DNA from: Deltaproteobacteria bacterium
GTDB taxonomy: Bacteria > Desulfobacterota > JAENJC01
Direction of reading: 5' to 3'
DNA: 64,000 bases
Assembly (NCBI GenBank): GCA_030646755.1
Contig: JAUSKU010000092.1
Location: forward strand, 14,270 to 78,269
Shown here: one piece after another, positions 12,708 through 59,040 of the stretch
How the letters are laid out: every line of letters starts with the position of its first letter
Position numbering within the stretch: the stretch's first letter is position 1
Made by a program: the position numbers and the translations under genes
The notes under the pieces: generated by a model
Database searches by the model: none
What the model was told of the DNA's origin: nothing
Seen by the model: only the letters and a program-made list of their open reading frames with translations

Positions 12708-12715
12708 TCCTTAAG

Positions 12716-13201: not shown

Positions 13202-13653
13202 CCCTTCGCTGATGCACGAACCACGTCTGCCTTGCCTATGATCCCGACCAGTTTATCTCCATCGACAACCGGTATGGTATAAACCTTCTTTTCTGACATT
13301 ATCGTGGCTATCTCACGAACAGGGGTATCAGAGGTAACAGTTATCGGGTCTTCGGTGTAGATGTCCTCTACCTTAGCCCCTGTCATCTTTTTCAGCTCCT
13401 TCTCAAAGTGTTTTTCGCTTTCGAGAAATATCACTGAGTCAAGAATAGTAAAGACCGTTGGGAGGTGAAGGGACTTGGACTGCTCCACCAGGTCGCTTTC
13501 CGTAACCACTCCTATGACCTTTCCAGAATTATCAACGACTGGGACACCGCTTATCCCGCTCATTGTAAATATTTCAGCCAGCTCAGAAACATTTGTTTCT
13601 TTCTTAACGGTTATTACATCCTTTGTCATTATATCTTTTGCTGTAAGCATCAT
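13198..13653 (-). CDS. CBS domain pair protein
   Basis: The ORF is 151 aa. MMLTAKDIMTKDVITV...GISGVPVVDNSGKVIGVVTESDL contains two CBS motifs. GGAG precedes the ATG at 13653, and the ORF-track extension to 13743 is a heptamer-repeat artefact. Confidence 0.75.
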   Translation of the reverse strand: MMLTAKDIMTKDVITVKKETNVSELAEIFTMSGISGVPVVDNSGKVIGVVTESDLVEQSKSLHLPTVFTILDSVIFLESEKHFEKELKKMTGAKVEDIYTEDPITVTSDTPVREIATIMSEKKVYTIPVVDGDKLVGIIGKADVVRASAKG

Positions 13654-13685
13654 CTGACTCCTTTTAGTGACCGGTGGCCAGTGGC

Positions 13686-13774
13686 CGGTGGTCAGTTGAA
13701 CTATTGATTTAATTGCAATTGCCGACCACTGATCACTGACCACTGACCACTGACTTTATTGCATAAGGTATCTT
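13686..13774. repeat. inverted pair of heptamer arrays: (AGTGRCC)n ... 27 bp ... (GACCACT)n, site 2
   Basis: The left array is agtgaccggtggccagtggccggtggtcagt and the right is gaccactgatcactgaccactgaccactgac. It lies between the CBS gene and nnr. Confidence 0.9.
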
Positions 13775-39917: not shown

Positions 39918-40157
39918 TTACAATATTTCAAACCTGTAATTCTCAATCACCGTATTTGCAAGGAGCTTCTCGCACATCTCTTTGACCTTCTTCTCTGCAT
40001 CAGGCTTAGGGATATCGGCAAGCTTAATCTCTATAAACTTCCCTATCCTTACATCCTCCGCCTCTTTATAACCGATCGACTCCAGGGAGTGCTGAACTGC
40101 TTTCCCCTGCGGGTCCAAGACCCCTTTTTTAAGCGTAACATAAACCTTTGCAATCAT
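39918..40157 (-). CDS. purS: PurS
   Basis: The ORF is 79 aa. It begins MIAKVYVTLKKGVLDPQG. A GAGGAG ribosome-binding site lies 8 nt before the ATG at 40157, and the ORF-track start at 40181 would include that site. Confidence 0.8.
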   Translation of the reverse strand: MIAKVYVTLKKGVLDPQGKAVQHSLESIGYKEAEDVRIGKFIEIKLADIPKPDAEKKVKEMCEKLLANTVIENYRFEIL

Positions 40158-41339: not shown

Positions 41340-42632
41340 TTATTTAAAAACCCTATTGAATATGTAGTCTACGTTCTTAAGATGATAGTTTAAATCGAAC
41401 GAATTTTCAATCTCTTTTTTGTCAAGGTACCTTGTCACATCTTGGTCTGAAAGGAGGAGTTCCTTGAAATCCTTCCCCTCAGCCCATACCCTCATGGCGT
41501 TCCTCTGAACCAGGTTGTAGGCCTCCTCCCTGCTTGCCCCCTTTACCGTCAAGGCAAGCAATACCCTCTGTGAATGGATAAGGCCGTGGAGTTGGTTAAT
41601 GTTCTTCATCATGTTTTCAGGGTAGACGATGAGCCTGTCCATCAGGTCCGCAAATCGGTTGAGCATATAGTTCATCATGATGGTGCTGTCGGGGCCTATG
41701 ACCCTCTCTACGGATGAGTGGCTTATATCCCTCTCATGCCACAGCGCCACATTCTCCATGGCAGCAAAGGAGTTGGACCTAACCAGCCTTGCAAGACCTG
41801 TCAGATTCTCGGCTGATATGGGGTTCCTCTTGTGAGGCATGGCTGAGGACCCCTTCTGTCCGGGAGAGAAATATTCTTCAGCCTCCAACACCTCTGTCCT
41901 CTGAAGGTGCCTCAGTTCAACGGAGAAATTCTCTATGGACGATGCTATCAAGGCAAGGGTTGTAAAGAACTCGGCGTGCCTGTCCCTCTGGACCACTTGG
42001 GTTGATACAGGCTCAGGCGTCAGCCCCAGGTGCTTACAAACATACTCTTCCACGAACGGAGGGATATTGGCGAATGTCCCGACAGCCCCGGATATGGCCC
42101 CGCAGGATATCACATCCTTCGCCCTCTCCATCCTCGCAAGGTTTCTTTTCATCTCTTCATACATCAAGGCCATCTTCAGGCCGAAGGTCACAGGCTCGGC
42201 ATGAATGCCGTGGGAACGCCCCATAGCAGGGGTCATCTTGTGCTCCATCGCCCTCCTCTTCAAGACCTCCATGCACCTCTTTATGTCGGATATGATTATC
42301 TCCGACGCCTCTTTTAGCAGGACTGCAAATGATGTGTCAATAAGGTCCGAGGATGTCATCCCCTTATGCAGGAACCGCGATTCAGGCCCTATGCTCTCGT
42401 TGACGGATGTGAGAAACGCTATCACGTCATGCTTCACCACCTTCTCAATCTCATCAATCTTCTTGGGATCGAAGCAGGCCTTCTTCTTAATGACCTCAAT
42501 CGCCTCCCTCGGCACCTCCCCAAGCTCCGCCCAAGCCTCAGTGGCCAGTATCTCCACCTTTAACCATGTCTGGTACCTCTTCTCCACTGTCCATATCGCC
42601 GCCATCTCCGGCCTTGTATAACGCTCGATCAT
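41340..42632 (-). CDS. purB: adenylosuccinate lyase
   Basis: The ORF is 430 aa. It begins [14 protein letters not shown] and carries the fumarate-lyase signature [11 protein letters not shown]. Confidence 0.9.
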
Positions 42633-42662
42633 TTACGATTCTCCTTTTGTTCTAATATTATG

Positions 42663-42791
42663 AGGTTCTTGCAAAAGTCTAATTTGTGGTTCGACAGGCT
42701 CACCACGAACGGGAAAAATCAATAAATTCAACTGAACCACCGTTCACCCTGAGCTTGTCGAAGGGTATTCGAAGAGCTTTGCAAGAGCCTC
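42663..42791. mobile_element. MITE-like element, copy 1 (about 129 bp, 18-bp terminal inverted repeats)
   Basis: The left terminal repeat is GAGGTTCTTGCAAAAGTC and the right is GAGCTTTGCAAGAGCCTC. The core TGTGGTTCGACAGGCTCACCACGAACGGGAAAAA...CCACCGTTCACCCTGAGCTTGTCGAAGGGTA is about 90% identical to copy 2. Confidence 0.6.
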
Positions 42792-42820
42792 ATTATCATT
42801 ATCAGCTTCTTTTCATGGGG

Positions 42821-43009
42821 CTATTTATCTTGAACTATATCTTCGGGCTTTAACCAGACTGTCTTTCCGTCACGCCAGACAGCAACAGGGTTTCCGGCCT
42901 GTTTGTGCCGTAAGAGGGCTTCATGGACGCCATCTGGCAATGCTTGAGTGATTTTTTCTTTATTCTCAAATATCTCGGAAATTCTATCTCTGACTTTTTC
43001 TTGTGACAT
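42821..43009 (-). CDS. hypothetical small protein of 62 aa
   Basis: The ORF encodes MSQEKVRDRISEIFENKEKITQALPDGVHEALLRHKQAGNPVAVWRDGKTVWLKPEDIVQDK. No family was recognised, and it is bracketed by the MITE and the inverted repeat at 43041-43113. Confidence 0.35.
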   Translation of the reverse strand: MSQEKVRDRISEIFENKEKITQALPDGVHEALLRHKQAGNPVAVWRDGKTVWLKPEDIVQDK

Positions 43010-43113
43010 TATATTCCTCCTCTATCTGCTGCCAGATACCGTAGGATGGGTGAAACCCATCACACAAAACCTACATTATAACGATGGGTTGCGTTTCACT
43101 TCACCCATCCTAC

Positions 43114-43560
43114 TTACTGATGAACCAGGACGTTACGACTCCAGCCATGTTCGATGGCCTTCCGGGCATACCATTCCCGTTCTTTTCTGGATTTGAGCTT
43201 GGTAATAATGGTGATATTTTGCCCCCACGGTATTTGTCCAACGAGCTGTTGGACAATTTGCTCTGTATCCCATGCTTCGGCAAAGCTTCGCATATACATG
43301 AGATTCGCCCTCGAAAACCCTTTCATATCCGGGAACTCCCGTCGAAGGTCTGTTGCCAGGCGCTCGACAACCTTTGCTCCCCAGCCTTCCTGTTCCTGTC
43401 GGGTCAGGATGTCACGGCCAATCTGCCAGTAGAGCAAAACCAGTTCGCTGTTGACCGCCAAAGCGGCCCGCACTTGGGCCTGGCGGATTCGCGCCTTCAG
43501 GTCGCGCAGGAACTCTTCATATCCCTTGAAAGTGGTAATGTTCATCCCCTTCCCCTTCAC
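43114..43560 (-). pseudogene. DUF1016/YhcG-like N-terminal fragment (the PD-(D/E)xK nuclease C-terminal domain is missing)
   Basis: The ORF is 148 aa and ends at ...AIEHGWSRNVLVHQ, where YhcG-like proteins continue into the nuclease domain. The truncation coincides with a long imperfect inverted repeat at 43041-43113. Confidence 0.5.
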
Positions 43561-43996
43561 AACCGCCTTTCCGCCGCCTGCCGCAAGAGACGCAGGCCTT
43601 TAAATACTGACAAATATGCAACGACTGGTTATTCCGCAGAGCCTATTGTTCCCTTTCCCATATCTGGCAATTCAGCAATTCAGTGTCATGTCCTCAAAAT
43701 TCCAGGTTTCCTTGGTCTCTGGTCAACGGGGCAGACGACAAGCAACTGATGCACAGCACAGTAATAAGCAAAGCTTTGATCTTAGATACTGTTTTGTTCA
43801 TCATGTTTTTGTTCTCCTGTATGTTCATATGCACCTCCGAATTGAGTTTAATGCCTTTGGCCACCTGCAAGGTTGCACTTGCAGCTACTATTGGCTGTGC
43901 TATGGCATCAGGATGCCTATGTATCGTATGCCCTATCTCCCCCGAAGGCCAGAGATCAAGGAATATTAATTATGCTTTATTAAATTTGTCTCTTAT

Positions 43997-44126
43997 GAAC
44001 CTCTTGCAAAAGTCTTTTTGTGGTTCGACAGGCTCACCACGAACGGGAAAAAGTCAATGATTCCAACCCGACCACCGTTCACCCTGAGCTTGCCGAAGGG
44101 TAATTTCGGACTTTTGCAAGAGGCTC
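43997..44126. mobile_element. MITE-like element, copy 2 (about 130 bp)
   Basis: The left terminal repeat is GAACCTCTTGCAAAAGTC and the right is GACTTTTGCAAGAGGCTC. The core is the same as copy 1. Confidence 0.6.
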
Positions 44127-44235
44127 CCATCTCAGACAATTCAGTATCAAGTCACCGGGTTACATTACCTAATTCGTCGTTTCCTTCTCTAAGGGACTTT
44201 GGTAAATACTAAAATACCGTTTTTGATAGGTCAAA

Positions 44236-44312
44236 CCCATCCCCACCCTAACCCTCCCCTTGAAAGGGAGGGAGGTTTACTTCTCCCCCTATATTGAGAG
44301 GGGGATGGGTTG
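44236..44312. repeat. GC-rich palindromic element, copy 4
   Basis: It contains ccccaccctaaccctccccttgaaagggagggagg and tctccccctatattgagagggggatggg. Confidence 0.75.
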
Positions 44313-44342
44313 TTAAGCGGTATGTTTGAATGTTCTAAGTCC

Positions 44343-45353
44343 CTAACTTACAATTGTTTTTATCCAGCAATTTTCGCTGCATGAATCAAAAAAATCAATG
44401 TCTGCTTTAATCCCAGCACGATTTAATTGCTGCTCCATCCGATTGATGTCTTTGTAAATCTCCACTTGTGGCCGATCTGTATAAACAGATACAGCAATAT
44501 CTGTTAGACGTGCTTTCGCTAATTGTTTCAGTATATGAAAATCCATCTCTTCCATGGACCAGCCATAAATCACCAATGTTGGCCCCACTGCCGGCAAAAC
44601 AGAATCATATAATGTGCTTAAATAGTGACTTCTCTTAATAGCCTTTAATTTCTGTTCCGATAATCCTTCACTTACAAATAATGGAATGGTAGTCCCAGAT
44701 TCCCATTGCTTCAATATCTTGTTCAAGAGGTTAATCCCGTCTGTAACATTTATCTTGGTTTCATTCCCGTAAATATCAGTAGATAAAACAAGATTTCCAT
44801 GAGGATAGAAAAGCAGTGAAGCCCCTTTTGCATTATAGGGTTTTGAAAAGCCTGACCAGTTATCGGGAAACGATCCACTTACAAAGCAGTCCTTAAACCA
44901 GTTGCCAAGTTCATTATTCCCTTCCAAGATAGACCAATAAATTATCAAGTCATAATTTAAACTTACTATCACTGAAAACCTTTTTAGAAAATTATATATA
45001 GACTTAATAAATGGTCTTACTGCTTCAACTGTAGTGTGATTGTGTCTAACAGTGCCTATTAAGGCGTTACGCAATTCTTGATACGTATGATAAGAAACCG
45101 ATTCTTTTATCTGCAAAGCTGTATTAATGTGATATGTATGCCAAAGTAGACTTAAAACATATTCAAAATCCTCTGTTTCCAGATATTTGAAAATCATATC
45201 TATGTTTGTGCTGATTAACTTTATATCTTTTGAAGTCTTCAGAAGCGACTTATACGAAAAACAGCCATCTATAGCAATGCTGGCTCCATTGCCTAGTAAA
45301 ATACTATGTTGGTATTTCTCTGAGATATCATTCCAATCATGAATATTCGTCAT
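44343..45353 (-). CDS. DUF4917 family protein
   Basis: The ORF is 336 aa. The N-terminal motif SILLGNGASIAIDGCFSY matches the LLGNGFSIA signature of DUF4917. The gene is markedly AT-rich (about 38% GC against about 50% in the flanks), which suggests horizontal acquisition. Confidence 0.55.
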   Translation of the reverse strand: MTNIHDWNDISEKYQHSILLGNGASIAIDGCFSYKSLLKTSKDIKLISTNIDMIFKYLETEDFEYVLSLLWHTYHINTALQIKESVSYHTYQELRNALIGTVRHNHTTVEAVRPFIKSIYNFLKRFSVIVSLNYDLIIYWSILEGNNELGNWFKDCFVSGSFPDNWSGFSKPYNAKGASLLFYPHGNLVLSTDIYGNETKINVTDGINLLNKILKQWESGTTIPLFVSEGLSEQKLKAIKRSHYLSTLYDSVLPAVGPTLVIYGWSMEEMDFHILKQLAKARLTDIAVSVYTDRPQVEIYKDINRMEQQLNRAGIKADIDFFDSCSENCWIKTIVS

Positions 45354-45558
45354 AGCTTTTTCTTGTATATCCCTTTAGGGAATTCTCCGCTTCTTCCGAG
45401 GACTACGAACTATATGTAACGTCTTAAATAATAGCGCATAGCGTGCGCAATACCCCATTTGGAAATTCGGGGGACCTTTTTCCGCCCCCCTCTTTACCGA
45501 ACTGATTTTTCATAACGCCCTTTAATTCCTTTATGCCCTTGGGTACTCTTACCTTAAG

Positions 45559-45618
45559 AGGGGGAACGTGCCAGTTGGCCCCTCACCCTGACCCTCTCCC
45601 CCCTTTTGGGGCGAGGGA
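45559..45618. repeat. GC-rich palindromic element, copy 5
   Basis: The sequence is cccctcaccctgaccctctcccccttttggggcgaggg. Confidence 0.75.
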
Positions 45619-45654
45619 ATAATGGATTGCGGAAATGACAATTTCAAATCTCCC

Positions 45655-45852
45655 TCACTCCAGCCCCTCAAACCTCGCATCAGTAATCGCCCTTTTTTTG
45701 AAACCTATAGTCTTGTTGATGAAAAGGTTTGCCTCTTCAAGCCACTGGAGCCGCTGTCTGACCGACATATCCTTGAACTCCTCCAGCTTCTCCTTGGTGA
45801 AGGTATACACGATGTCTATATGTTCCTTGCTATCATCGCCCACTTTTTTCAA
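45655..45852 (-). CDS. small protein of 65 aa, downstream partner of the nucleotidyltransferase
   Basis: It overlaps the 3' end of the upstream nucleotidyltransferase gene by 20 bp. No family was recognised. Confidence 0.35.
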   Translation of the reverse strand: MKKVGDDSKEHIDIVYTFTKEKLEEFKDMSVRQRLQWLEEANLFINKTIGFKKRAITDARFEGLE

Positions 45853-46324
45853 TCTCCTTCAGCGCCGCAATGTCGGCAAGATCCTGGGGTCTGCCGGAAA
45901 TCTCCTTAAGTCTAATGAGATTTTTTACAGAGACAACAGGTATGGGAACGTTGCCGGACATTATTTCGACTGCATCAGACATTATCAGGCCGTAGTCCAC
46001 TGGTTCTTCAACAAACACGTCAACCAGATTGATCGGCATCTGAGGATGGAAAAAACTGAAGACCTTCATATTCTTTTCGCTGATCCAGGTTGCCCTATTC
46101 TTAGCACTGATAAAGTCTTCTGCTTTTATAGGCACCTTTGGCCTGTATCCAAGCTCGTTCATGACATTAACGAACTTGCTGAGATTCTCCTCTTCCAGAT
46201 GGACCATAAGGTCAAGGTCTGCCGTCAGCCGGACGACTCCATGAAGGACGAGGGCGACTCCCCCCACAACAACGTAATCAACATTACTGCTATTCAGTTT
46301 TTCAAATAATTCCTCGTAAAACAT
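45833..46324 (-). CDS. minimal nucleotidyltransferase (Pol-beta superfamily, MNT/AbiEii-like)
   Basis: The ORF is 163 aa. NVDYVVVGGVALVLHGVVRLTADLDLMV fits the hG[GS]x9-13DhD nucleotidyltransferase motif. Confidence 0.55.
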   Translation of the reverse strand: MFYEELFEKLNSSNVDYVVVGGVALVLHGVVRLTADLDLMVHLEEENLSKFVNVMNELGYRPKVPIKAEDFISAKNRATWISEKNMKVFSFFHPQMPINLVDVFVEEPVDYGLIMSDAVEIMSGNVPIPVVSVKNLIRLKEISGRPQDLADIAALKEIEKSGR

Positions 46325-46386
46325 CCTTACCCCTCTCTACTTCTTTACTCCCACTCAAACACCTCCAAATCCCCTCATCCCTTCCC

Positions 46387-46710
46387 TTATCTCAACACCC
46401 TTTTCTGCAAAAGTTCTTGCAGGTCGCGCCTTCCGTCAAGAACACAATGGACAAAGACCTCTGATTTGCGAATCTCGTAGATTATTCTGAATGGCTTGTA
46501 ATGGATCTCCTTGAAATCAAAAACGCCTATCCGTTCCAACTCCGGCGGAATATGGCCGCGCAAAGGAAAGGTTTCGAGCCTTTGAACAGCTTCTTCAATA
46601 TGGTCAAGCAGCGTGTCGGCCTGTTCCACTGAATCGTTCATTGCAATATATTGATAGATATCGAGGAGGTCTTTTTCTGCATCTTCAATCAGATGGACAG
46701 TGAATCTCAT
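46387..46710 (-). CDS. parE: type II toxin, RelE/ParE family
   Basis: The ORF is 107 aa. Its size and pattern (…FDFKEIHYKPFRIIYEIRKSEVFVHCVLDGRRD) fit ParE, and it overlaps the antitoxin gene by 4 bp. Confidence 0.7.
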   Translation of the reverse strand: MRFTVHLIEDAEKDLLDIYQYIAMNDSVEQADTLLDHIEEAVQRLETFPLRGHIPPELERIGVFDFKEIHYKPFRIIYEIRKSEVFVHCVLDGRRDLQELLQKRVLR

Positions 46711-46991
46711 TTCTCACGAAGTCCCGCGGCTCTTTTCCTCACATCCCTGAAAGCCTCTTTGAAAGGCTTGATTTTCCCATCTTCAAGATTTTTCCTGCTC
46801 ATTGCCAGGATTTTCAACAATGCAAGGGACTCCTGCATCTTTTCATATTCGTTTATGTCCTGCAAGATCACTTTCGCCTCACCGTTTTGCGTGATTACCA
46901 TAGTCTTGTGGCCTTCGACAATATCTCTAATGACCTCCGACGCATGCGCCTTAAAATAACTTATTGGTTTAATATCTTCGCTAAGTTTCAT
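46707..46991 (-). CDS. type II antitoxin, Phd/YefM family
   Basis: The ORF is 94 aa. The N-terminus ISYFKAHASEVIRDIVEGHKTMVITQNGEAKVILQDINEYE is typical of YefM. Confidence 0.75.
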   Translation of the reverse strand: MKLSEDIKPISYFKAHASEVIRDIVEGHKTMVITQNGEAKVILQDINEYEKMQESLALLKILAMSRKNLEDGKIKPFKEAFRDVRKRAAGLREK

Positions 46992-47243
46992 CTTCCCCTC
47001 CCGCAGATTGACTAAAATATAGTCTATATTTTAGTCGTTCGCAATGCAACTTCTTTTCGCCCGTCCTTATGATATGAATAAAAAGGAATAAAAAGGGTAG
47101 ATTTATTTCCCTTTCCCCGCTTCCAGCCGCGCCTCGCTTACTCTTTGATAACCTTTAAATCTGTGTCAGTGGCTTCGTTTATCTTTGGCATAACCGCCCT
47201 TAGATTCCCGCTTGAACACTTCGGGAATGACAAAATAAGAGGC

Positions 47244-47469
47244 TTATCTGTATACTTCTCTGCGATGGGCAACACGGTAAACCTTGACAATCCTTTGTGC
47301 ATCATCAAGCTCGTAGAGTATCTTGTAATCACCCACTCTGATGCGCCATTTCGAGCCGCCGCCGCTGAGCTTTTTAGAGTTCCGTGGCGTATAGGCCAAG
47401 AATCGCATCCTCAAGCCTCGTTAAAAGCCGGTCAGAAAAACAGTCAAGGTCTTTCTGGGCTTTCGGCAT
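47244..47469 (-). pseudogene. RelE/ParE-family toxin gene with a frameshift
   Basis: Manual translation on the minus strand gives MPKAQKDLDCFSDRLLTRLEDAILGLYATEL* and then, in another frame, PRNSKKLSGGGSKWRIRVGDYKILYELDDAQRIVKVYRVAHRREVYR*. The second stretch is the RelE C-terminal signature. Confidence 0.55.
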
Positions 47470-47488
47470 TATCTGCACATCGTATTGA

Positions 47489-47710
47489 TTCAAGCTGTAT
47501 CCCCGGTTTTACGCCGTTTTGTGAAATAATCTTTGGCAGAGACAGGTTTACCCTTTACCTTCTTTGCCTCATCAATCAATGCAGCATCCATAAGGTCTTC
47601 CCTGATCCGGCGGTTTTTTAATATTTTTTCAAAAAAGCCTCTCGCACGCTACTGTCAAGCACCTTGAATGCCGTAAAGAAAACCTCTGCCGTGGCCTGAT
47701 TTGCCTTCAT
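47489..47710 (-). pseudogene. cognate antitoxin gene interrupted by a stop codon
   Basis: Manual translation gives MKANQATAEVFFTAFKVLDSSVREAFLKKY* and then ...MDAALIDEAKKVKGKPVSAKDYFTKRRKTGDTA*. It lies immediately upstream of the decayed RelE gene. Confidence 0.4.
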
Positions 47711-47800
47711 AAATTAACCTTCTTACTCTATTTCCCTCTGATACACCGGGCATTTCCTGCGCAACTGATGTTGATGGTGCGTGGGACGCACCCTACAAAA

Positions 47801-48202
47801 CTATGCCTTAAGTTTATCAAGAACAAACCCTTTAACTTTCACCGCTATCTCATACGCCTGCTTTGACTCTTCTATCGTGGGTTCATACCACTCATCAGGA
47901 TACCGAATCTCAACTGCATAATCTGTCAGGACATCGGCCTCTGATAAGTCCTCTTTAAACGACTTATCCACCTTAGAACAAAGGTTTAGAAGCATCATTA
48001 TGCTGTGCGTCTTTGAAAACTCAATCTGGTGTTTAACTAAAAAAGCCTTTAAATACTTCTCTACCGCCTGCTGGCAATGAAAACTCACAGTTTCTGTAAC
48101 GACGGTTTCAGCCTCCAGGCCCTGTTTAGCAGTCAGCAAATCCCTTTCTGCTATATGAATCCATTGATGAACCAAATCCTGTATGGTCTTCCCTTTATCC
48201 AT
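47801..48202 (-). CDS. HEPN domain protein (toxin of a HEPN/MNT pair)
   Basis: The ORF is 133 aa with the all-alpha HEPN pattern (…FHCQQAVEKYLKAFL…EIRYPD). It overlaps the upstream MNT gene by 8 bp. Confidence 0.65.
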   Translation of the reverse strand: MDKGKTIQDLVHQWIHIAERDLLTAKQGLEAETVVTETVSFHCQQAVEKYLKAFLVKHQIEFSKTHSIMMLLNLCSKVDKSFKEDLSEADVLTDYAVEIRYPDEWYEPTIEESKQAYEIAVKVKGFVLDKLKA

Positions 48203-48506
48203 ATACTATCCTGCCATATTTGTTGGCCGTATAAACTATTGTTCCAACAACATCTTTGAGGGTCTCAAACTCTTTTCTTGTCTTTACGATAACATCAACC
48301 GGGAATGTAAAGTCCCTCAGATAACTTCTTGCCACGCGATTCCTCTTGATTATAGGCAATTCATCATCTTTGATCACCAGTAAATCAACGTCACTATCCT
48401 TTGTCGGCTCCCCGTAGGCGTAAGAACCGAACAAGATGATCTTTTCCGGCTTATAACCGTTGACAATAGCCGTAATTGCCTGATTTATCTGTTCCTGAGT
48501 TATCAT
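48195..48506 (-). CDS. minimal nucleotidyltransferase (MNT antitoxin)
   Basis: The ORF is 103 aa. ILFGSYAYGEPTKDSDVDLLV is the GSx10DxD nucleotidyltransferase motif. Confidence 0.75.
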   Translation of the reverse strand: MITQEQINQAITAIVNGYKPEKIILFGSYAYGEPTKDSDVDLLVIKDDELPIIKRNRVARSYLRDFTFPVDVIVKTRKEFETLKDVVGTIVYTANKYGRIVYG

Positions 48507-48688
48507 CTCCCCTCATCACCACTCAATCCCCTGCCTCCTCAACCAATCCTGCTCCCCTTTATGCCACAATCCCGGCAGTCTCGCAGGGTGCGTGGGACGC
48601 ACCCTGCGAACTCCTTATGTTTTATTATCAGCGCGGCATGACTTGAAGCTTCATAGATTCAAAATAACTATCAAAAGAAAAGGCAGTC

Positions 48689-48967
48689 TCAATCTTTAAT
48701 CGCTCCATTACTGCAAAGCTGGTGCAGTTTTGCATAGAGGTATTTGTCATGCTCTCTTGCAACAGGGGAACCGTCTCCGGCCCCGATCCCAATTATCTTC
48801 ATTATCGGGTCACTTTTCGTGATTGCGGTCTGCCTGGAAAACTTTTCGGTCACAAGCTCTCTGACAATACTGGAAAGACTCTTCTTCGTTTTTCTGGATG
48901 TCTCAAGCAACACTTGATACTGCCAATCTTCAAGCGACACCTGTGTTCTATGTTTTGCACGTTCCAT
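48689..48967 (-). CDS. ribbon-helix-helix (CopG/Arc-like) DNA-binding protein
   Basis: It begins MERAKHRTQVSLEDWQYQVLLETSRKTKKSLSSIVRELV, which has an RHH pattern. An AGGAGG ribosome-binding site lies 8 nt before the ATG at 48967. Confidence 0.5.
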   Translation of the reverse strand: MERAKHRTQVSLEDWQYQVLLETSRKTKKSLSSIVRELVTEKFSRQTAITKSDPIMKIIGIGAGDGSPVAREHDKYLYAKLHQLCSNGAIKD

Positions 48968-49022
48968 AAGGTCACCTCCTGAGTTACACCTTACATCATT
49001 CAAAATCTGATGTCAATTTACC

Positions 49023-49454
49023 TTATTCCCACTCAAACGCCTCATAAATTCCCTCTTCCCTCCTCCTCTGGGCAGTCTTGCTCTTATAGCTCCCTTTCTT
49101 CACCTTAACACCTTTCCGACTAAGTATCTTTTCGATATAGTCAAGATGCGGGCATGGCGGGTAATGGGCGCTGTCTGTGACCATGCAGGATGAGAGGTGT
49201 ATCACTATCTCGTCCTTCTCTATGTTCGCCTTCTTCTTTGCCCTCTTTATAAGGTTTTCAGTGACCCTCCCGATCCTTCTGCCGGGGCATCCGCCGCAGT
49301 TGAAAGGGACGACCATTATCTTATCTTCGTTTGAATAGCCGGTAAATGCATCAATCCTATCATGAAAAGAGTTGACGCAGGCGAACCCGCTGCATCGCTC
49401 CTTTGCGAAGTCGCACTGGATGATGCCTATGAGCTTGATGTTTTTATTTTCCAT
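49023..49454 (-). CDS. CGGC domain protein
   Basis: The ORF is 143 aa. The Cys-rich motifs CGGCPGR, CSGFAC and CPHLD are present. Confidence 0.55.
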   Translation of the reverse strand: MENKNIKLIGIIQCDFAKERCSGFACVNSFHDRIDAFTGYSNEDKIMVVPFNCGGCPGRRIGRVTENLIKRAKKKANIEKDEIVIHLSSCMVTDSAHYPPCPHLDYIEKILSRKGVKVKKGSYKSKTAQRRREEGIYEAFEWE

Positions 49455-49554
49455 TGTTTATTACTCCCTTGCCGGGGACAGTCCCGATTCTACCACCCCG
49501 CACTTCGTGCTCCCCTCCTTATTAAGGAGGGGAATTAAAGGGGTGGTTAAATCC

Positions 49555-52500
49555 TTACTCAACCACCATTGCCTTGTACCCAAACAGTTTCTCCACCCCT
49601 TCTTCAAGGGCAGGAGTTGGCGAAACACCGTCGTGCAGGGCGATTACAGTCTCACCTGTATTTGGAATAGAAATATGCAGGAATGACGGACAGTTACCAT
49701 TATACCCTTCAAGTAATTTCTTAAGTTTTACCAGGTGATCTTTTGTCAAGCCAAGGGCATTTATTTTGAAGTGTACAGCCTTAACTGTCTTCTCCTTTGC
49801 CTGTGTAAGGGACATTATCTCAGAGGCAACGATCTTTGCTCCCTTCTTCGGAGTCTTGTTCCCGTTCCCTTCATCCTCACCGTTTTCATCCTTCCCATCC
49901 TCTCCAAGGTCAAGGTTTCCCTTCACAAGTATCGGCTCGTCCCCAAAGAAGAGGTGGGAGGACTTTTTGAATATCTCCGGCAGTACAATGACCTCCACGA
50001 ACCCGTCCAGGTCTTCCAAGGTAATAAACGCCATCCTATCGCCCTTTTTGGTGTTTATCTCCTTTGATGCCGCAACTATCCCTGCCACCCTGACCTCCGA
50101 CCTGTCAGCCATCTCCGAAAGGGTCACTGTTGAGGCATTGGCAAGTTTCTTTATGTCATCACTGAATCTTGCCAGGGGATGACCGGTTATAAAGAAGCCG
50201 AGGGCCTCCTTCTCGTTGGCAAGGAGGATATTTTCAGGCCATTCAGGGATATCAGGAAGGTTAAAGTCTGTCGTGCTCTTCAATGCCGCACCGCCGAACA
50301 GCCCCATCTGCCCGGCATTTGTGTCCTTCCGCAACGACTGCCCGACCTCCATGGCCCTGTCGAGCCCCTCCATCATCTGGGCCCTGGCGGCTCCAGTGGA
50401 ATCAAAGGCCCCGCATTTAATAAGACCCTCCATGACCTTCCTGTTGACCTTCCTCAGGTCAACCCTCTCGCAGAAATCAAGGAGGGCTGCAAAACCGCCT
50501 CCCTTCTCCCTCTCTTCTATCACAATGTCTACGGCAGCAGCGCCAACTCCCTTCACTGCCGCAAGACCGAACCTGATCTTGCCGTCTATGACGGAGAAGT
50601 CCCTCTGGCTATCATTTACATCCGGAGGAAGTACAGTAATATTATGATCTCGGCATTCGCCAATGTACTTTATTATCTTGTCCGTGTTGCTGACCTCGCA
50701 GGTCAGGAGGGCAGCCGTGAACTCCACAGGATAATGGGCCTTCAGATACGCAGTGTTATAGGCGATCAGGGCATATGCGGCGCTGTGGGACTTGTTGAAC
50801 CCGTATTCGGCAAACTTGGCCATAAGGTCAAAGATCTTCTCTGCCTTTTTGGGATTGACCTTCTTGTGCCTTGCACCTTCCAGGAACCGCTCCTTCTGCT
50901 TGGCCATCTCATCGGCCTTCTTCTTACCCATGGCGCGCCTGAGAATATCGGCTTCACCAAGGGAGTACCCGGCCACAGCCTGGCTTATCTGCATCACCTG
51001 TTCCTGGTAGACCATAACGCCGTAAGTATCCTTGAGGATCGGTTCAAGCTCAGGGATCTCATACTTGATCTCAACCCTCCCATGCTTACGGTCTATAAAC
51101 TCAGGGATCATATTCATCGGCCCGGGCCTGTATAAGGCGATAAGGGCTATGATATCCTCAAAGGTAGAGGGTTTGAGTCTTGCAAGGAGGTCCTTCATTC
51201 CAGAGCTCTCAAGCTGGAAGACCCCTGTTGTATCCCCTGAAGAGAGGAGCCTGTATGTGGCCTCATCGTTTAGGGGAAGCTTGGTCATGTCAATCGTCTC
51301 ACCCCTTACAGCCTTTATAAGCTTTAGTGCATCCTCTATAAGCGTCAGGGTCTGAAGCCCAAGGAAATCGAATTTTATGAGCCCCAGCTTCTCTATGTAT
51401 TTCATGTCGTACTGGGTGGTCACCTCATCATCGGCAAGATAGAGAGGGGTATATTCTACAAGAGGCCTGTTGGCTATGACAACTCCTGCTGCGTGCTTGG
51501 ATGCATGCCTTGTAAGACCTTCAAGGGCCTGGGCGATATCCAAGAGATCCTTTACCTGTGGAGATGACTTGTAGAGTTCATTGAGCCTTGGCTCCTGCTT
51601 CAGGGCGTCTTTTATAGTGATGCCGAGGGTGTTGGGAACGAGCTTTGCGATCCTGTCCACCTCGCCGTAAGGTACGTCCATCCCCCGACCGACATCCCGG
51701 ATTGCCGCCTTTGCCTTCATGGTGCCGAAGGTTATTATCTGGGAGACGTTCTCCCTTCCATACTTATCCCTGACGTATTTGATGACTTCATCCCTCCCGG
51801 CGATGCAGAAGTCCACGTCTATATCGGGCATTGATACCCTTTCAGGGTTCAGGAACCTCTCGAAGAGGAGGTTGTAAGGCAACGGGTCCAGGTCCGTGAT
51901 CCTCATGGCATAAGCCACAAGGCTTCCGGCAGCGGAGCCCCTTCCCGGTCCGACAGGGATACCCCTCTCCTTTGCATGGTTGATGAAGTCCGCTACTATA
52001 AGGAGATACCCCGGAAACCTCATCTTCTTTATCATCTCTATCTCGAATTCAAGCCTGTTCCGGTAAACCTCCCTTTGGTCATCAGAGAGGTTCATGACGG
52101 CAAACCTGCCCTCCAGCCCTTTCCTGGCCTCCTCCTCAAAATACAGGTCCATATCTGTATGCCCTTCCGGGAGGTGATAATGAGGAAGGTGGTACTTCCC
52201 GAACTCCAGCTTCAGGTTGCACCTTTCCGCAATCTCTATGGTATTCTTTATCGCGTCAGGGCAGTATGAAAATGCCTCTATCATCTCTTCGGGGGACTTC
52301 ACGTAGAACTGGTCCGTTGAAAATCTCATCCTTTTGGGATCGTTTATCGTCGCCCCGGTCTGGATGCAGAGAAGCACCTCGTGGGCCTTGGCATCTGCCT
52401 TTTTAAGGTAATGGCAGTCGTTGGTGGCAACCAGAGGAATGTCCAACTCCTTTGAAAGCTCCAGCAGAGCCTTATTGGCTATGGTCTGCTCCTTTATGCC

Positions 52501-53052
52501 GTTCTCCTGTATCTCCAGGAAGAACCTCCTGTCAGGGAATATGGACTTGTACTCCTCTGCGACCTGGTACGCCTTTTCCTTATTCCCCCTGGTCAGGTGA
52601 TAAGGTATCTCTCCCTTCAGGCAGGCCGACAGGGCTATTAGCCCTTCGCTGTGCTGCCTTAGAAGCTCCTTGTCGATCCTGGGTTTCCTGTAAAAGCCTT
52701 CGATATACCCAACGGACACCAGTTTCATCAGGTTCTTATACCCGGTCTCGTTCTTAACAAGAAGGACAATATGATAAGCAGTGGCCTCCTCGGACTCACC
52801 CTTTATCCCAGTCTTCTCGAACCTGCTCCCTGGCGCAACATAGACCTCGCAGCCTATGATCGGCTTTATCCCGTGTTTAACGGCAGATTCATAGAACTCC
52901 ATGGCCCCGAACATGTTCCCGTGGTCTGTAATGGCAATGGCAGGCATCTTGAACTCTCTGGCCTTCTCCATCAGGTCATTGATGCGGTTTGCCCCGTCAA
53001 GGAGTGAGTATTGGGTATGTAAGTGAAGGTGTACGAAATCGGAGTGATGCAT
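49555..53052 (-). CDS. dnaE: DNA polymerase III alpha subunit
   Basis: The ORF is 1165 aa. The N-terminus MHHSDFVHLHLHTQYSLLDGA is a PHP domain, and the polymerase core and OB fold follow. Confidence 0.95.
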   Translation of the reverse strand: MHHSDFVHLHLHTQYSLLDGANRINDLMEKAREFKMPAIAITDHGNMFGAMEFYESAVKHGIKPIIGCEVYVAPGSRFEKTGIKGESEEATAYHIVLLVKNETGYKNLMKLVSVGYIEGFYRKPRIDKELLRQHSEGLIALSACLKGEIPYHLTRGNKEKAYQVAEEYKSIFPDRRFFLEIQENGIKEQTIANKALLELSKELDIPLVATNDCHYLKKADAKAHEVLLCIQTGATINDPKRMRFSTDQFYVKSPEEMIEAFSYCPDAIKNTIEIAERCNLKLEFGKYHLPHYHLPEGHTDMDLYFEEEARKGLEGRFAVMNLSDDQREVYRNRLEFEIEMIKKMRFPGYLLIVADFINHAKERGIPVGPGRGSAAGSLVAYAMRITDLDPLPYNLLFERFLNPERVSMPDIDVDFCIAGRDEVIKYVRDKYGRENVSQIITFGTMKAKAAIRDVGRGMDVPYGEVDRIAKLVPNTLGITIKDALKQEPRLNELYKSSPQVKDLLDIAQALEGLTRHASKHAAGVVIANRPLVEYTPLYLADDEVTTQYDMKYIEKLGLIKFDFLGLQTLTLIEDALKLIKAVRGETIDMTKLPLNDEATYRLLSSGDTTGVFQLESSGMKDLLARLKPSTFEDIIALIALYRPGPMNMIPEFIDRKHGRVEIKYEIPELEPILKDTYGVMVYQEQVMQISQAVAGYSLGEADILRRAMGKKKADEMAKQKERFLEGARHKKVNPKKAEKIFDLMAKFAEYGFNKSHSAAYALIAYNTAYLKAHYPVEFTAALLTCEVSNTDKIIKYIGECRDHNITVLPPDVNDSQRDFSVIDGKIRFGLAAVKGVGAAAVDIVIEEREKGGGFAALLDFCERVDLRKVNRKVMEGLIKCGAFDSTGAARAQMMEGLDRAMEVGQSLRKDTNAGQMGLFGGAALKSTTDFNLPDIPEWPENILLANEKEALGFFITGHPLARFSDDIKKLANASTVTLSEMADRSEVRVAGIVAASKEINTKKGDRMAFITLEDLDGFVEVIVLPEIFKKSSHLFFGDEPILVKGNLDLGEDGKDENGEDEGNGNKTPKKGAKIVASEIMSLTQAKEKTVKAVHFKINALGLTKDHLVKLKKLLEGYNGNCPSFLHISIPNTGETVIALHDGVSPTPALEEGVEKLFGYKAMVVE

Positions 53053-58782: not shown

Positions 58783-59040
58783 TTGACAGCACACCTCAAT
58801 GCCACTGTCGTCAAGTTTATGGACAGGATAAAGGATACCCGCATAAACGTCCTTAGAATAACCGAAGATATTGAAACCGCTGCAAAGACAATGTTCAGAA
58901 AGTTTGATGATAGAAAACTTAGCTTTACCGACTGCACAAGCTTTGCCGTGATAAACCATCTCGACCTCCGCGCTGTCTTTGTCTTCGACGACCATTTCAG
59001 ATACCACCCCTATTCGCATCCTGTAGAGTTCTTGGGATAA
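58783..59040 (+). pseudogene. vapC: vapC (PIN) C-terminal fragment abutting the IS3 right end
   Basis: The ORF is 85 aa, and ...LSFTDCTSFAVINHLDLRAVFVFDDHF matches a VapC C-terminus. It begins 4 bp after the IS3 right end, and the N-terminal catalytic Asp region is missing. Confidence 0.5.

Follow-up and report, generated by a model that had tools for sequence, protein, structure and literature searches.

Genes and remnants between purB and dnaE

The window (the whole 64,000-nt stretch of DNA analysed here) carries an island of small minus-strand genes between purB (adenylosuccinate lyase; 41340..42632, minus strand), which was 100% identical to NCBI MDO8446778.1, and dnaE (DNA polymerase III alpha subunit; 49555..53052, minus strand), which was 87-95% identical to the genes of relatives, in which Pfam identified PHP, DNA_pol3_alpha, and HHH_6 domains. 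All features listed in the earlier note were found on the minus strand, each at or near the place given for it, and its reading of both flanks as housekeeping genes was borne out. It had taken the whole stretch up to 49500 as accessory, which holds for the interval to 49022 but not for the CGGC-domain gene (49023..49454, minus strand; PF08821, 8e-23), a core neighbour of dnaE. Because this gene was conserved at 92-93% identity in all six relatives with dnaE at the locus and its GC3 (0.625) resembled that of purB and dnaE, the island was taken to end at 49022, with the CGGC gene as the left-hand frame and purB as the conserved right-hand frame.

The intact cargo consisted of a Phd/ParE pair, an MNT/HEPN pair, a nucleotidyltransferase (NTase) pair, and a DUF4917 gene. 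In agreement with the proposal that many genes had decayed, seven scars were identified in the island, comprising two frameshifts, four gene stubs, and one duplicated CGGC 3' end, with two MITEs besides. Since no integrase, recombinase, or tRNA gene was found in or beside the island, the mechanism of gain is read from the scars alone. Plus-strand ORFs of 158-224 aa antisense to island genes matched no family. The GC content was 0.437 in the island versus 0.482 in the window, the window gene mean being 0.491 ± 0.031 (27 long ORFs), and it ranged from 0.35 to 0.53 from cassette to cassette. Most cargo (0.42-0.46) was just 1-2 SD under the gene mean, so that composition by itself singles out only DUF4917 (0.351, more than 4 SD low) and HEPN/MNT (0.40-0.42).

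Next to the CGGC gene lies an orphaned gene for an RHH antitoxin-like protein (48689..49003, minus strand), whose match to RHH_4 (0.0037) was weak and under the Pfam cut-off. The earlier note had paired it with the CGGC gene; its 3' flank turned out to be the final ~36 codons of a PIN-domain toxin (48628..48738, minus strand), which the RHH reading frame enters out of frame. Evidence for this stub was modest (tblastn): it was 33% identical to the C-terminus of a PIN gene in L087 (14288-14395; E 7e-4 in a small database) and also matched a PIN fragment at window positions 58921-58998. The RHH protein is thus probably the orphaned antitoxin of a deleted PIN toxin rather than a CGGC partner.

The adjoining MNT (48195-48506; PF01909, 4.3e-12; PADLOC PDC-S09) and HEPN (47801-48202; PF05168, 2.2e-27) genes, both on the minus strand, are intact and overlap by 8 nt. 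Judging from family membership, they would form a nucleotidyltransferase-antitoxin and HEPN-toxin pair; on inspection of the HEPN sequence, an Rx4-6H motif was not obvious. A 17-nt palindrome, GGTGCGTGGGACGCACC, occurs in the window only at 47776 and 48587, on either side of this pair (0.08 matches in shuffles). Copy 1 (GGGTGCGT-CCC-ACGCACCC; 47776..47799) directly follows the HEPN stop codon, copy 2 (48587..48610) directly follows the PIN remnant, and the same palindrome was found 3' of the DUF3368 stop codon in L082 (7452-7469).

Toxin-antitoxin genes are frequent cargo of integrons. The position of the palindrome GGGTGCGTCCCACGCACC directly 3' of three toxin-type genes (HEPN, the PIN stub, and DUF3368 in L082), together with the co-orientation and tight packing of the small cassettes, could be taken to indicate an integron-like cassette array lacking a nearby integrase, with attC-like sites 3' of the toxin genes. 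We consider this barely credible: no integron integrase was present among the island ORFs, the palindrome (8 bp of perfect stem around a 3-nt loop) is much shorter than attC and follows three cassettes only, and the overlapping two-gene operons and stubs of neighbouring genes seen in several cassettes are not expected under precise attC x attI recombination.

Between the HEPN gene and the NTase, a DUF3368 (PIN-like) gene is represented by 11 codons of its middle part (47742..47774, minus strand; peptide SVAQEMPGV), which were recognized by 94% identity over 35 nt to L082 positions 7186-7220, within the DUF3368 gene of that relative. They are followed by a decayed toxin-antitoxin pair (47244..47710, minus strand), which base-by-base alignment showed to be 87% identical to intact 73-aa and 78-aa genes of L088. 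Relative to these genes, the antitoxin pseudogene (47490-47710) has a 1-nt deletion near 47637 and the ParE/RelE-family toxin pseudogene (47244-47469) an 11-nt deletion near 47388; once repaired, the toxin matched PF05016 at 2.4e-11. The intact Phd (46707-46991; PF02604, 6e-18) and ParE (46387-46710; PF05016, 2.2e-18) genes, on the minus strand with a 4-nt overlap, cover nearly the full profiles and would, from family membership, constitute a type II pair. Just upstream of the NTase, a direct repeat (46345..46384, minus strand) duplicates the last ~40 nt of the CGGC gene and matches the CGGC 3' end of L082 (6608-6648) at 90%.

On the purB side, a GC-rich double hairpin (44236..44310) lies directly 3' of the DUF4917 stop codon; this short repeated element contains a terminator-like match (44252-44272), and a 38-nt copy, 95% identical, is present in L087 (2837-2874). 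The truncated DUF1016/YhcG-like gene (43114..43560, minus strand; PF17761 [DUF1016_N], 1.4e-45) matched only positions 6-145 of the 346-position PADLOC PDC-S02 model and so lacks its nuclease half. The gene orf62 (42821..43009, minus strand) encodes a small conserved protein with 62-92% full-length identity in five relatives and an invariant C-terminal half, and it had no match in Pfam, NCBIfam, or PADLOC. Listed in the earlier note as a 62-aa ORF, it proved to be the partner of an AAA_33/Zeta-like kinase gene in three relatives (L081, L082, and L088), where its homologue overlaps the end of that gene. In the window, the last 16 codons of the kinase gene are left (42990..43037, minus strand), detected with tblastn as residues 185-200 of the L082 protein (87.5% identity), and the blastn match to L082 stops at 43037. 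By these sequence comparisons, orf62 is the leftover downstream partner of the lost kinase gene.

The two MITEs share a 36-nt core (100% identical; chance expectation 0), and their terminal inverted repeats measure 18-24 nt and are 83-94% complementary. Copy A (42657..42796), of ~140 bp and without an ORF, has 24-nt repeats; copy B (43993..44130) is 79-100% identical to it, its own repeats being 94% complementary. In L081, L082, L087, and L088 the spacer between orf62 and purB is uninterrupted, and compared with it copy A is an insertion. A further copy was found in L087 (12415-12523).

Cargo at the locus in related genomes

The locus was compared between the window and six relatives representing five haplotypes, all of them metagenome assemblies, in which mis-assembly across repeats is possible for any single contig. 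The purB gene was 95-98% identical across 11 related loci. In the six relatives, the dnaE-CGGC ... purB frame was kept and the cargo between CGGC and purB differed, each of the five haplotypes and the window having its own content in an interval of 1.3 kb (smallest) to 6.4 kb (window, the largest load). The cargo was an NTase and a 57-aa gene, with nothing else, in L091; an NTase and a 59-aa gene, then orf61, in L087; an NTase and a 62-aa gene, a 274-aa gene, and AAA_33 with a 61-aa gene in L081; a 64-aa gene with DUF3368, a DDE transposase, and AAA_33 with a 62-aa gene in L082; and a 73-aa antitoxin with ParE, a 421-aa HNH-like gene, and AAA_33 with a 61-aa gene in L088/L089. DUF4917, the DUF1016 fragment, Phd/ParE, HEPN/MNT, and RHH were found only in the window. 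One relative (L090) had a wholly different upstream neighbourhood.

In place of the conserved synteny and uniform composition that would have spoken against an accessory island, content differs between relatives and composition is uneven, which upholds the earlier proposal of an integration hotspot or defence island. In a species-level genome collection, the nearest purB was 68% identical and no genome had purB beside dnaE; the hotspot is therefore documented in one narrow lineage only.

The NTase163/orf65 pair and the DUF4917 gene

NTase163, a DUF6036 nucleotidyltransferase (45833..46324, minus strand; PF19502, 4.9e-6, above its cut-off), overlaps by 20 nt the gene of a small partner and proposed antitoxin, orf65 (45655..45852, minus strand; motif (K/R)LxWLEEAN). 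Far from being a newcomer, the pair is the commonest and most conserved occupant of the slot, shared by the window with three of the five haplotypes of relatives, and an orf65 homologue accompanies the NTase in L081, L087, and L091. Two alleles exist at the locus, with NTases 51% and partners 25-28% identical, versus more than 90% for the flanking core genes. Among metagenome loci, an orf65 homologue (~60 aa) lay downstream of the NTase in 74 of 77, usually across the NTase stop codon, and the upstream neighbours were mutually unrelated in 61, so that, by gene context, NTase and partner are an autonomous two-gene module. For all its constancy downstream of the NTase (74/77 loci), the ~60-aa partner matches no known family, and orf65 itself had no sequence match in Pfam or PDB.

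NTase163 had 669 homologues, and its residues G21 G22, T34, D36, D38, D102, K140, D148, and D151 were invariant. The predicted structure (pLDDT 91.9) had MenT1 as its best PDB match (E 7.5e-7, TM 0.67), MenT1 ranked first by structure and by profile, and the profile alignment spanned both motifs. Residues T39, D41, K137, and D152 of Mycobacterium tuberculosis MenT1 have been tested (PMC10435456, PMC11375011); the equivalent T34, D36, K140, and D151 of NTase163 are all conserved (4/4). NTase163 is accordingly a candidate MenT1-like minimal toxin, on the basis of sequence and model. Going by its family, it would add nucleotides to tRNA 3' ends and thereby block translation, and orf65 would restrain it by binding or by inducing T34 autophosphorylation.

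A housekeeping or resistance enzyme with an accessory protein, such as an LnuA- or ANT(2'')-like small-molecule NTase outside any toxin-antitoxin system, would account for the constant position of the pair as the most conserved occupant. Structural matches ranking below MenT1 included TM1012, LnuA (a lincosamide NTase), and ANT(2'')-Ia (an aminoglycoside NTase), at TM 0.58-0.66, and there is a weak match to Pfam Aminoglyc_resit (7.5e-4). Such an enzyme nevertheless appears rather unlikely, as the MenT1 toxin is the best match by fold and profile, with agreement extending to the C-terminal K...RPQD..D motif, a hallmark of AbiEii/DUF1814 toxins, and the alleles of L087 and L091 match Pfam AbiEii. 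Divergent alleles between conserved core genes are also the pattern of exchangeable cassettes, and the module lies in unrelated contexts in 61 metagenome loci.

The intact, low-GC DUF4917 gene (44343..45353, minus strand) matched PF16263 (2.6e-87) and PADLOC PDC-S21 (2.3e-102). The GNGxS, NYD, and HG motifs are invariant, and the predicted fold (AlphaFold pLDDT 91.7) is nearest to SIR2 of the SIR2-HerA antiphage system (best PDB matches; E 7e-9, TM 0.53). Homologues were found inside a type I restriction-modification operon with McrB adjoining (L198), beside KAP NTPase, Fic, and transposase genes (L197), and on 24 IMG/VR contigs. The DNA of the nearest homologue, L172, is 94% identical over a stretch that begins 47 nt before the start codon and runs through the stop codon, and there a 213-aa T5orf172/MUG113 gene precedes DUF4917 and overlaps its start. 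Comparison with L172 revealed that the window retains the last ~15 codons of such a gene (45354..45400, minus strand); by this alignment, the DUF4917 gene has lost its upstream operon partner.

The DUF4917 protein is thus a SIR2-fold defence candidate by its model, already listed as PDC-S21. By family membership, it would be a SIR2-type NAD+-consuming effector of abortive-infection-type defence, here separated from its T5orf172 partner. In the literature searched, SliP of Campylobacter jejuni was the one DUF4917 protein found to have been studied; sirtuin deacetylase activity and action on host histones were reported for it (PMC10421069), which could suggest a deacetylase or secreted effector in place of a defence NADase. 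This seems improbable here: the source lineage is an uncultured groundwater bacterium and no pathogen, deacetylase sirtuins matched the structure at E 4e-4 or worse, homologues occur with defence genes and on viral contigs, and PADLOC carries the family as a defence candidate. DUF4917 and the NTase pair, offered in the earlier note as examples of an undescribed system, are uncharacterised, but both belong to known kinds (SIR2-fold and MenT1-like, respectively).

Proposed history of the site

The interval from the CGGC stop codon (49022) to purB (42633) is very probably a strain-variable insertion hotspot and not one mobile element. Cassettes for toxin-antitoxin and defence functions, each small and self-contained, would have entered the site, accumulated head-to-tail on the same strand, and afterwards decayed. 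The simplest state would be that of L091, in which CGGC is followed by the NTase, its small partner, and purB; the NTase lies directly 3' of CGGC in L081, L087, and L091. A block of 2.66 kb, consisting of RHH and the PIN stub, MNT/HEPN, the decayed antitoxin/ParE-RelE pair, and Phd/ParE, would have been set between CGGC and the NTase in the window. Because a copy of the CGGC 3' end lies on either side of this block, the sequence suggests recombination between haplotypes at this conserved end in preference to transposition. On the downstream side of the NTase pair, the low-GC DUF4917 cassette and the DUF1016 fragment would have replaced the 274-aa gene and AAA_33 kinase of relatives, leaving stubs, and the two MITEs would be later additions.

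Co-orientation of all genes, the overall lower GC content than the surroundings, and the many pseudogenes and stubs might also be left by one integrated prophage, integrative element, or genomic island that had decayed, and the duplicated CGGC 3' end resembles the att-site duplication made by elements that integrate into gene 3' ends. Such a remnant is very improbable, since no integrase, structural, transfer, or tRNA gene was found, the duplication encloses just the 2.66-kb sub-block, and sub-blocks occur independently in relatives (antitoxin/ParE alone in L088, the NTase pair alone in L091, L087, and L081). These independent sub-blocks and the wide GC spread among cassettes point to several separate events. 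A single-entry origin was rejected, as the same cassettes were found individually at the site in different strains. As an insertion hotspot, the island is an ordinary, textbook-type example, in which the cargo is mostly of known kinds and one module is modestly novel.

Conserved frame and variable cargo between the CGGC gene and purB

ORFs of at least 40 aa were listed between positions 40000 and 53000, and the minus-strand candidates were searched against Pfam, PADLOC, and NCBIfam. The features identified, all on the minus strand, were a fragment containing DUF1016_N only (43114-43560; Pfam/PADLOC), the DUF4917 gene (44343-45353; Pfam/PADLOC), a 163-aa nucleotidyltransferase (NTase) gene (45833-46324; hereinafter NTase163) overlapping that of its 65-aa downstream partner (orf65; 45655-45852), a ParE/Phd pair (46387-46991; Pfam), a HEPN/MNT pair (47801-48506; Pfam), an RHH-like gene (48689-49003; weak profile match), and a CGGC-domain gene (49023-49454; Pfam). 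All items listed in the earlier note, which had proposed 42650-49500 as an integration hotspot or defence island, were recovered in the ORF, profile, repeat, and six-frame analyses of the window, and nearly every cargo gene matched a toxin-antitoxin (TA) or defence family in Pfam or PADLOC. Plus-strand ORFs antisense to the cargo matched no family and were treated as spurious. The purB of the window was identical to NCBI MDO8446778.1, and DUF4917, NTase163, orf62 (the small gene beside purB), and the CGGC gene were adjoining entries on the same contig.

About 30 purB proteins at 92-98% identity were present in a large protein collection, and the contigs of six were retrieved for comparison. 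Five haplotypes shared the gene order dnaE, CGGC, cargo, purB, an MscS-like gene, purS, and purQ. Protein and DNA comparison of the frame with the window gave identities of 87-95% for dnaE, 92-93% for CGGC, and 95-98% for purB among the six relatives. Between CGGC and purB, the cargo differed in all six haplotypes (that of the window and five from relatives), and ranged from 1.3 to 6.4 kb. L091 carried only an NTase and a 57-aa gene, with a dnaE-purB distance of 1.3 kb; L087, an NTase and a 59-aa gene, then orf61; L081, an NTase with a 62-aa gene, a 274-aa gene, and an AAA_33 kinase with a 61-aa gene; L082, a 64-aa gene with DUF3368, a DDE transposase, and AAA_33 with a 62-aa gene; and L088 and L089, a 73-aa antitoxin with a 78-aa ParE-family toxin, a 421-aa HNH-like gene, and AAA_33 with a 61-aa gene. 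Slot genes of the relatives also matched TA or defence families, namely DUF3368 (PDC-S70), ParE, and AbiEii. DUF4917, the DUF1016 fragment, Phd/ParE, HEPN/MNT, and RHH were present only in the window among the relatives compared. The proposal of an accessory island or hotspot was supported by this direct comparison: the frame was conserved, the CGGC-purB content varied, and synteny of the whole block was not maintained among the compared relatives. In a species-level genome collection scanned with purB, the closest protein was 68% identical (Nitrospirota MAGs), and dnaE lay beside purB in none of 80 loci.

The earlier note had also counted the CGGC gene as cargo and as the partner of RHH. Neither point held, as the CGGC gene was present and highly conserved in every relative, with a core-like GC3 of 0.625, and all relatives kept it without RHH. 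The RHH/CGGC pairing was therefore rejected and, with CGGC being a core gene, the island ends at 49022.

Two further differences were observed around the frame. In L090, purB was 96% identical and had no dnaE or CGGC upstream, where HIT, a 301-aa gene, and an ATPase/HNH cluster were found; the strain has either undergone a rearrangement here or has its chromosome arranged differently. In L087, the interval between the MscS-like gene and purS (12415-14419) contained a MITE copy and two PIN-type cassettes, with nothing at this position in the window, and forms another small variable slot, at a distance of about 2 kb from the CGGC-purB one.

The 27 long ORFs of the window had a mean GC of 0.491 ± 0.031 and a mean GC3 of 0.543 ± 0.061. 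DUF4917 had a GC of 0.351 (over 4 SD below the gene mean) and a GC3 of 0.332 (over 3 SD), HEPN/MNT had a GC of 0.40-0.42, the other cassettes were mildly low (0.42-0.46), and the DUF1016 fragment was at 0.53. This spread between cassettes argues for several acquisitions from different donors.

Neither a recombinase nor a transposase was detected by Pfam in the island of the window, which contained MITEs only; in L082, a DDE transposase occupied this slot. ARAGORN detected no tRNA in the 64 kb, and no RNA family was found by Rfam, either at the gathering threshold on the whole window or at E ≤ 1 on the island, so that no RNA anchor or RNA antitoxin was visible to these tools. A promoter and terminator scan was no better than on shuffled sequence (15 vs 12.6 and 5 vs 6.0, respectively).

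The region resembles defence islands and TA hotspots in its conserved flanks, its cargo differing between close relatives, its TA and defence genes, its atypical composition, and the presence of small mobile repeats. Unlike such islands in general, it has no integrase or tRNA anchor, its cargo lies on one strand and is mostly decayed, and its growth apparently proceeded via recombination at the CGGC 3' end.

Intact cassettes, gene remnants, and repeats in the slot

Phd/ParE and MNT/HEPN each consist of two overlapping, full-length genes from well-known families. In the first, a full-length Phd/YefM gene was followed by ParE with a 4-nt overlap (profile coverage 1-69 of 74 and 5-88 of 89). In the second, MNT (48195-48506; PF01909, 4e-12) was followed by HEPN (47801-48202; PF05168, 2e-27) with an 8-nt overlap, and MNT matched PADLOC PDC-S09 at 1.9e-10. 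By inspection, no Rx4-6H motif was present in HEPN, whose conserved Arg (…VEIRYPDEWYEP…) has no His within 4-6 residues. Because this motif was absent and the protein belongs to PF05168 and not to the HepT family DUF86, the unit was filed as a HEPN/MNT pair, not as a HepT RNase. The DUF1016/YhcG gene matched PDC-S02 (1.9e-72) over the N-terminal 40% only.

Other cargo was broken. Six-frame reading revealed a disrupted antitoxin and a ParE/RelE-family toxin between 47244 and 47710, and the repaired toxin matched ParE_toxin at 2.4e-11. The DNA of this pair was 87% identical to the intact pair of L088, relative to which the antitoxin carried a 1-nt deletion and the toxin an 11-nt deletion. Eleven mid-gene codons of DUF3368 remained at 47742-47774 (minus strand), the intact gene being found in L082.

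The orf62 gene was conserved in five relatives (62-92% over the full length, with an invariant C-terminal half), and in three of the five its homologue overlapped an AAA_33/Zeta-like kinase gene at the 3' end of the latter. Of this kinase, the window retains no more than the final 16 codons (42990-43037), and orf62 is thus an orphaned partner. Intact pairs of AAA_33 and orf62-type genes were observed in L081 (9181-9953), L082 (9192-9960), and L088 (6405-7177). In these, a Zeta-toxin-like kinase of about 200 aa was overlapped by a downstream 61-62-aa gene belonging to no family, which looks like another two-gene module with a small partner downstream.

Downstream of RHH, in another frame, a 36-codon stretch matched the C-terminus of a PIN protein (a weak match, E 7e-4 in a small database), and RHH is best read as a putative antitoxin whose PIN toxin was deleted. 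No NCBIfam match was obtained for orf62, orf65, RHH, or the PIN stub. Elsewhere in the window, an 85-aa ORF on the plus strand (58783-59040) matched only the C-terminal half of PIN (positions 61-115 of 120, E 5e-4); this further decayed toxin is similar to the PIN stub of the island.

A trace of how the slot was filled was found directly upstream of NTase163, where the last approximately 40 nt of the CGGC gene recurred as a direct repeat (46345-46384). CGGC is directly followed by the NTase in L081, L087, and L091. The window has a 2.66-kb block (RHH to ParE) bracketed by the two copies of the CGGC 3' end, and from this repeat we infer that the block arrived by recombination between haplotypes at the conserved CGGC 3' end.

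Three kinds of small repeats were observed among the cassettes. The MITE was present in two copies of about 140 bp with terminal inverted repeats of 18-24 nt (copy A, 42657-42796; copy B, 43993-44130), and a third copy occurred elsewhere in L087. In four relatives, the spacer into which copy A is inserted is uninterrupted, and the insertion site resembles the end of the element itself. A 36-nt core of the MITE (TTTGTGGTTCGACAGGCTCACCACGAACGGGAAAAA; 42683-42718 and 44017-44052) was 100% identical between the two copies, with the rest only about 79% identical, which could point to gene conversion or to a core with a function. Derivation of the MITE from the IS of L082 was rejected, as the two had no common inverted repeat.

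A 17-nt palindrome (GGGTGCGTCCCACGCACC) occurred in the window only at either side of HEPN/MNT. As GGGTGCGT-CCC-ACGCACCC, it was located at 47776-47799 and 48587-48610 in the window and at 7452-7469 in L082, in each case at most about 20 nt past the stop codon of a toxin-type gene (HEPN and the PIN stub in the window, DUF3368 in L082). No further occurrence was found among 171 loci examined. The palindrome could be a hairpin at the end of transcripts or a junction prone to recombination. In addition, a GC-rich hairpin element was observed right after the DUF4917 stop codon (44236-44310) and approximately 200-270 nt upstream of its start (about 45549-45620). It has a spurious translation of the form '...SPxxGGEGxGEG...', a 38-nt copy is 95% identical in L087 (2837-2874), and it looks like a short dispersed repeat or a terminator-like element.

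The DUF4917 gene and the operon of its nearest homologue

About 1,900 homologues of DUF4917 were detectable; apart from one relative at 91% identity, the nearest were 50% identical and came from unrelated phyla. Residues G21, N22, G23, and S25, N133, Y134, and D135, and H185 and G186 were invariant in an alignment of 38 sequences. Judged from the order of these motifs, N133 and H185 would correspond to the catalytic Asn and His of sirtuins, and G21-S25 to a nucleotide/NAD-binding loop. A sequence search of the PDB gave no match. The AlphaFold model (pLDDT 91.7) had a SIR2 fold consisting of a Rossmann domain and a small domain, and its best 30 PDB matches were all the SIR2 subunit of E. coli SIR2-HerA (Nezha), with a top E of 7e-9 and a TM of about 0.53; these 30 chains had E below 1e-5 and identities of 12-15%. 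SIRT2, SIRT1, and bacterial Sir2 followed, with human SIRT2 and bacterial Sir2 at E of about 1e-3 to 1e-4.

DUF4917 has the SIR2 fold, nucleotide loop, Asn, and His in common with the SIR2 subunit of SIR2-HerA, and more broadly with ThsA and DSR1/2. Unlike SIR2-HerA, the protein of the window is a single 336-aa domain with no HerA or other ATPase partner, and no other sensor or partner of SIR2 effectors (SLOG, pAgo, or a long sensor domain) was found in or beside it. It matched the PADLOC single-gene candidate PDC-S21 (2.3e-102). The window genes match PDC-S21, PDC-S02, and PDC-S09 strongly, yet these are candidates by genomic association only. In the literature searched, no paper mentioning PDC-S21 and no experimental report of DUF4917 in defence were found. 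The only DUF4917 protein studied there was SliP of C. jejuni, which has been described as a secreted deacetylase and whose best threading template was ThsA (PMC10421069). SliP belongs to the same Pfam family but is described as the secreted deacetylase of a pathogen, whereas DUF4917 of the window and its homologues sit among defence and mobile genes. In L197, a homologue lies between a KAP NTPase gene and transposase, Fic, and HTH-peptidase genes, and the family occurs on 24 IMG/VR contigs. In L198 (1511-8164), a homologue at 46% identity was observed between hsdR and hsdM/hsdS of a type I restriction-modification system, with a McrB-like gene downstream.

The 91% relative is encoded in L172, where the DNA was 94% identical to the window from 47 nt before the DUF4917 start to exactly the stop codon. 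There (113-1761), a 213-aa T5orf172/MUG113 gene, whose product has a winged-helix-like C-terminal tail, overlaps the DUF4917 start by 4 nt, and a PIN gene comes after. By comparison with L172, the window has lost T5orf172/MUG113 apart from its last approximately 15 codons (45354-45400, minus strand), and its DUF4917 gene is the surviving half of a T5orf172-DUF4917 operon. T5orf172 was rejected as a general companion of DUF4917: it was absent from the 24 viral loci, L197, and L198, and the pairing is thus specific to the nearest homologue. The T5orf172-DUF4917 pair is not listed by PADLOC under its single-gene label. DUF4917 of the window is probably a SIR2-type NAD+-consuming defence effector that was recently acquired and is now parted from its operon partner; the effector may or may not still work. 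It is a possibility that T5orf172 and DUF4917 (SIR2) constitute a two-gene defence system, of which the window would hold a broken copy.

The DUF6036 nucleotidyltransferase and its small partner

NTase163 exceeded the Pfam cut-off for DUF6036 alone (26.9 bits against 23.6), and matched PADLOC AbiEii weakly (5.5e-4). PF08843 (AbiEii) was matched by the same-site alleles in L087 and L091 and by several NTase homologues. A total of 669 homologues of very uniform length were found, and G21, G22, R32, T34, D36, D38, D102, K140, R145, Q147, D148, and D151 were invariant in 34 of them. This set contains a Pol-beta-type NTase core, with GG (G21 G22), DxD (D36, D38), and a third acidic residue (D102), as well as a conserved C-terminal motif K...R.QD..D (K140, R145, Q147, D148, D151).

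The earlier note had suggested NTase163 and its 65-aa partner as a possible undescribed system, but both the fold and the sequence profile of NTase163 matched the known toxin MenT1. The best PDB matches of the model (pLDDT 91.9) were MenT1 (Rv0078A), alone and in the MenAT1 complex (E 7.5e-7, TM 0.67-0.68), followed by TM1012, LnuA, and ANT(2'')-Ia, and MenT1 was also the first match of the family sequence profile (E 0.004). MenAT1 (Rv0078B/Rv0078A) of Mycobacterium tuberculosis consists of a short AbiEii/DUF1814 tRNA nucleotidyltransferase toxin and a 68-aa helical antitoxin (PMC10435456, PMC11375011). In the profile alignment, RLT34AD36LD38 corresponded to RFT39RD41VD, and K140...RPQD148LAD151 to K137...RPQDRSD152 of MenT1, so that T39, D41, K137, and D152, the positions mutated in studies of MenT1, appear as T34, D36, K140, and D151, and every residue shown to matter is kept. 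K137 and D152 are required for toxicity (PMC10435456), and the autophosphorylation induced by the antitoxin takes place at T39 (PMC10435456, PMC11375011). A Ser/Thr phospho-acceptor is located two residues before DxD in MenT1 (T39) and MenT3 (S78) (PMC11375011). T34, invariant and aligned to T39, is a putative phospho-acceptor.

Of 80 metagenome loci retrieved by means of the NTase alignment, 77 had enough downstream DNA, and a downstream protein of 47-78 aa with the motif (K/R)LxWLEEAN was encoded in 74 of these; one further locus had a partner that escaped the motif pattern. The start of the partner usually lies 3-13 nt ahead of the stop codon of the NTase. Among 67 distinct partner sequences, position 19 was S/T in 60 (Asp in 5), and K/R34, W37, L38, and E39 were conserved in 67, 66, 67, and 64, respectively. 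Upstream of the NTase no conserved gene was found; the upstream genes were mutually unrelated in 61 loci, indicating that the NTase and its partner form a self-contained two-gene module. Short stand-alone partner proteins were limited to 31 clusters in an exhaustive search. Two alleles of the module occupy this locus in the lineage, with 51% identity between the NTases, 25-28% between the partners, and over 90% between the flanking genes. In L142 (3538-4462), the WLEEAN partner ORF downstream of a DUF6036 NTase was observed to read through into an MNT domain without a change of frame (180 aa altogether), with a HEPN gene coming next; two antitoxin-like proteins are fused here, or else a stop codon has been lost.

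The module is similar to MenAT1 in the minimal NTase fold of the toxin and in the size of the partner (65 vs 68 aa), which is predicted from sequence to be helical. We concluded that it probably works like MenAT1, as a candidate tRNA-directed NTase toxin with a small helical candidate antitoxin. Sequence identity between MenT1 and NTase163 is, however, only about 19%, and the Pfam family of the window allele is DUF6036, not AbiEii. The partner is encoded downstream, overlapping the stop codon of the NTase, whereas menA1 is located upstream of its toxin gene, and, unlike MenA1, the partner has a motif of its own (S/T19, (K/R)LxWLEEAN). The orf65 family had no consistent Pfam match across 34 members, a partner profile found no chain in the PDB, including MenA1 of 8an5, and no upstream antitoxin homologous to MenA1 or AbiEi/COG5340 was found at the NTase loci. 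With a partner that is downstream and unrelated in sequence, the module departs from MenT/AbiEii in two of the features by which membership is defined. The DUF6036 NTase and its '(K/R)LxWLEEAN' partner could well be an undescribed MenT/AbiEii branch, comprising a minimal tRNA-modifying toxin with reversed gene order and a third, unrelated class of small antitoxin, a reading to which we give slightly less than an even chance. The partner might, like MenA1, force autophosphorylation of the conserved active-site T34; given the near-universal S/T19 (60 of 67, with Asp in 5 more), the partner itself is possibly the modified substrate. The module is widespread, and no publication under the family name DUF6036 was found in the literature searched.

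Overall, the region adds one more case to a known kind, and each of its genes already carries an annotation in the public record. The new part is modest: a reconstruction of the filling and erosion of the slot, the interpretation of the DUF6036 module, whose partner family had gone unrecognised, as MenT1-like, and the T5orf172-DUF4917 operon remnant. The region is a well-documented, unsurprising example of TA and defence cassettes accumulating and decaying at a chromosomal hotspot in an uncultured lineage, and intact versions of the broken genes exist in sister strains, making it useful for teaching and annotation. The occurrence of DUF4917 in restriction-modification operons and viral contigs supports, as a candidate, a stand-alone or T5orf172-coupled NADase defence, a reading that differs from that published for C. 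jejuni SliP. If NTase163 and orf65 are a TA pair, the recently proposed control by autophosphorylation would reach a new antitoxin class and many environmental phyla.
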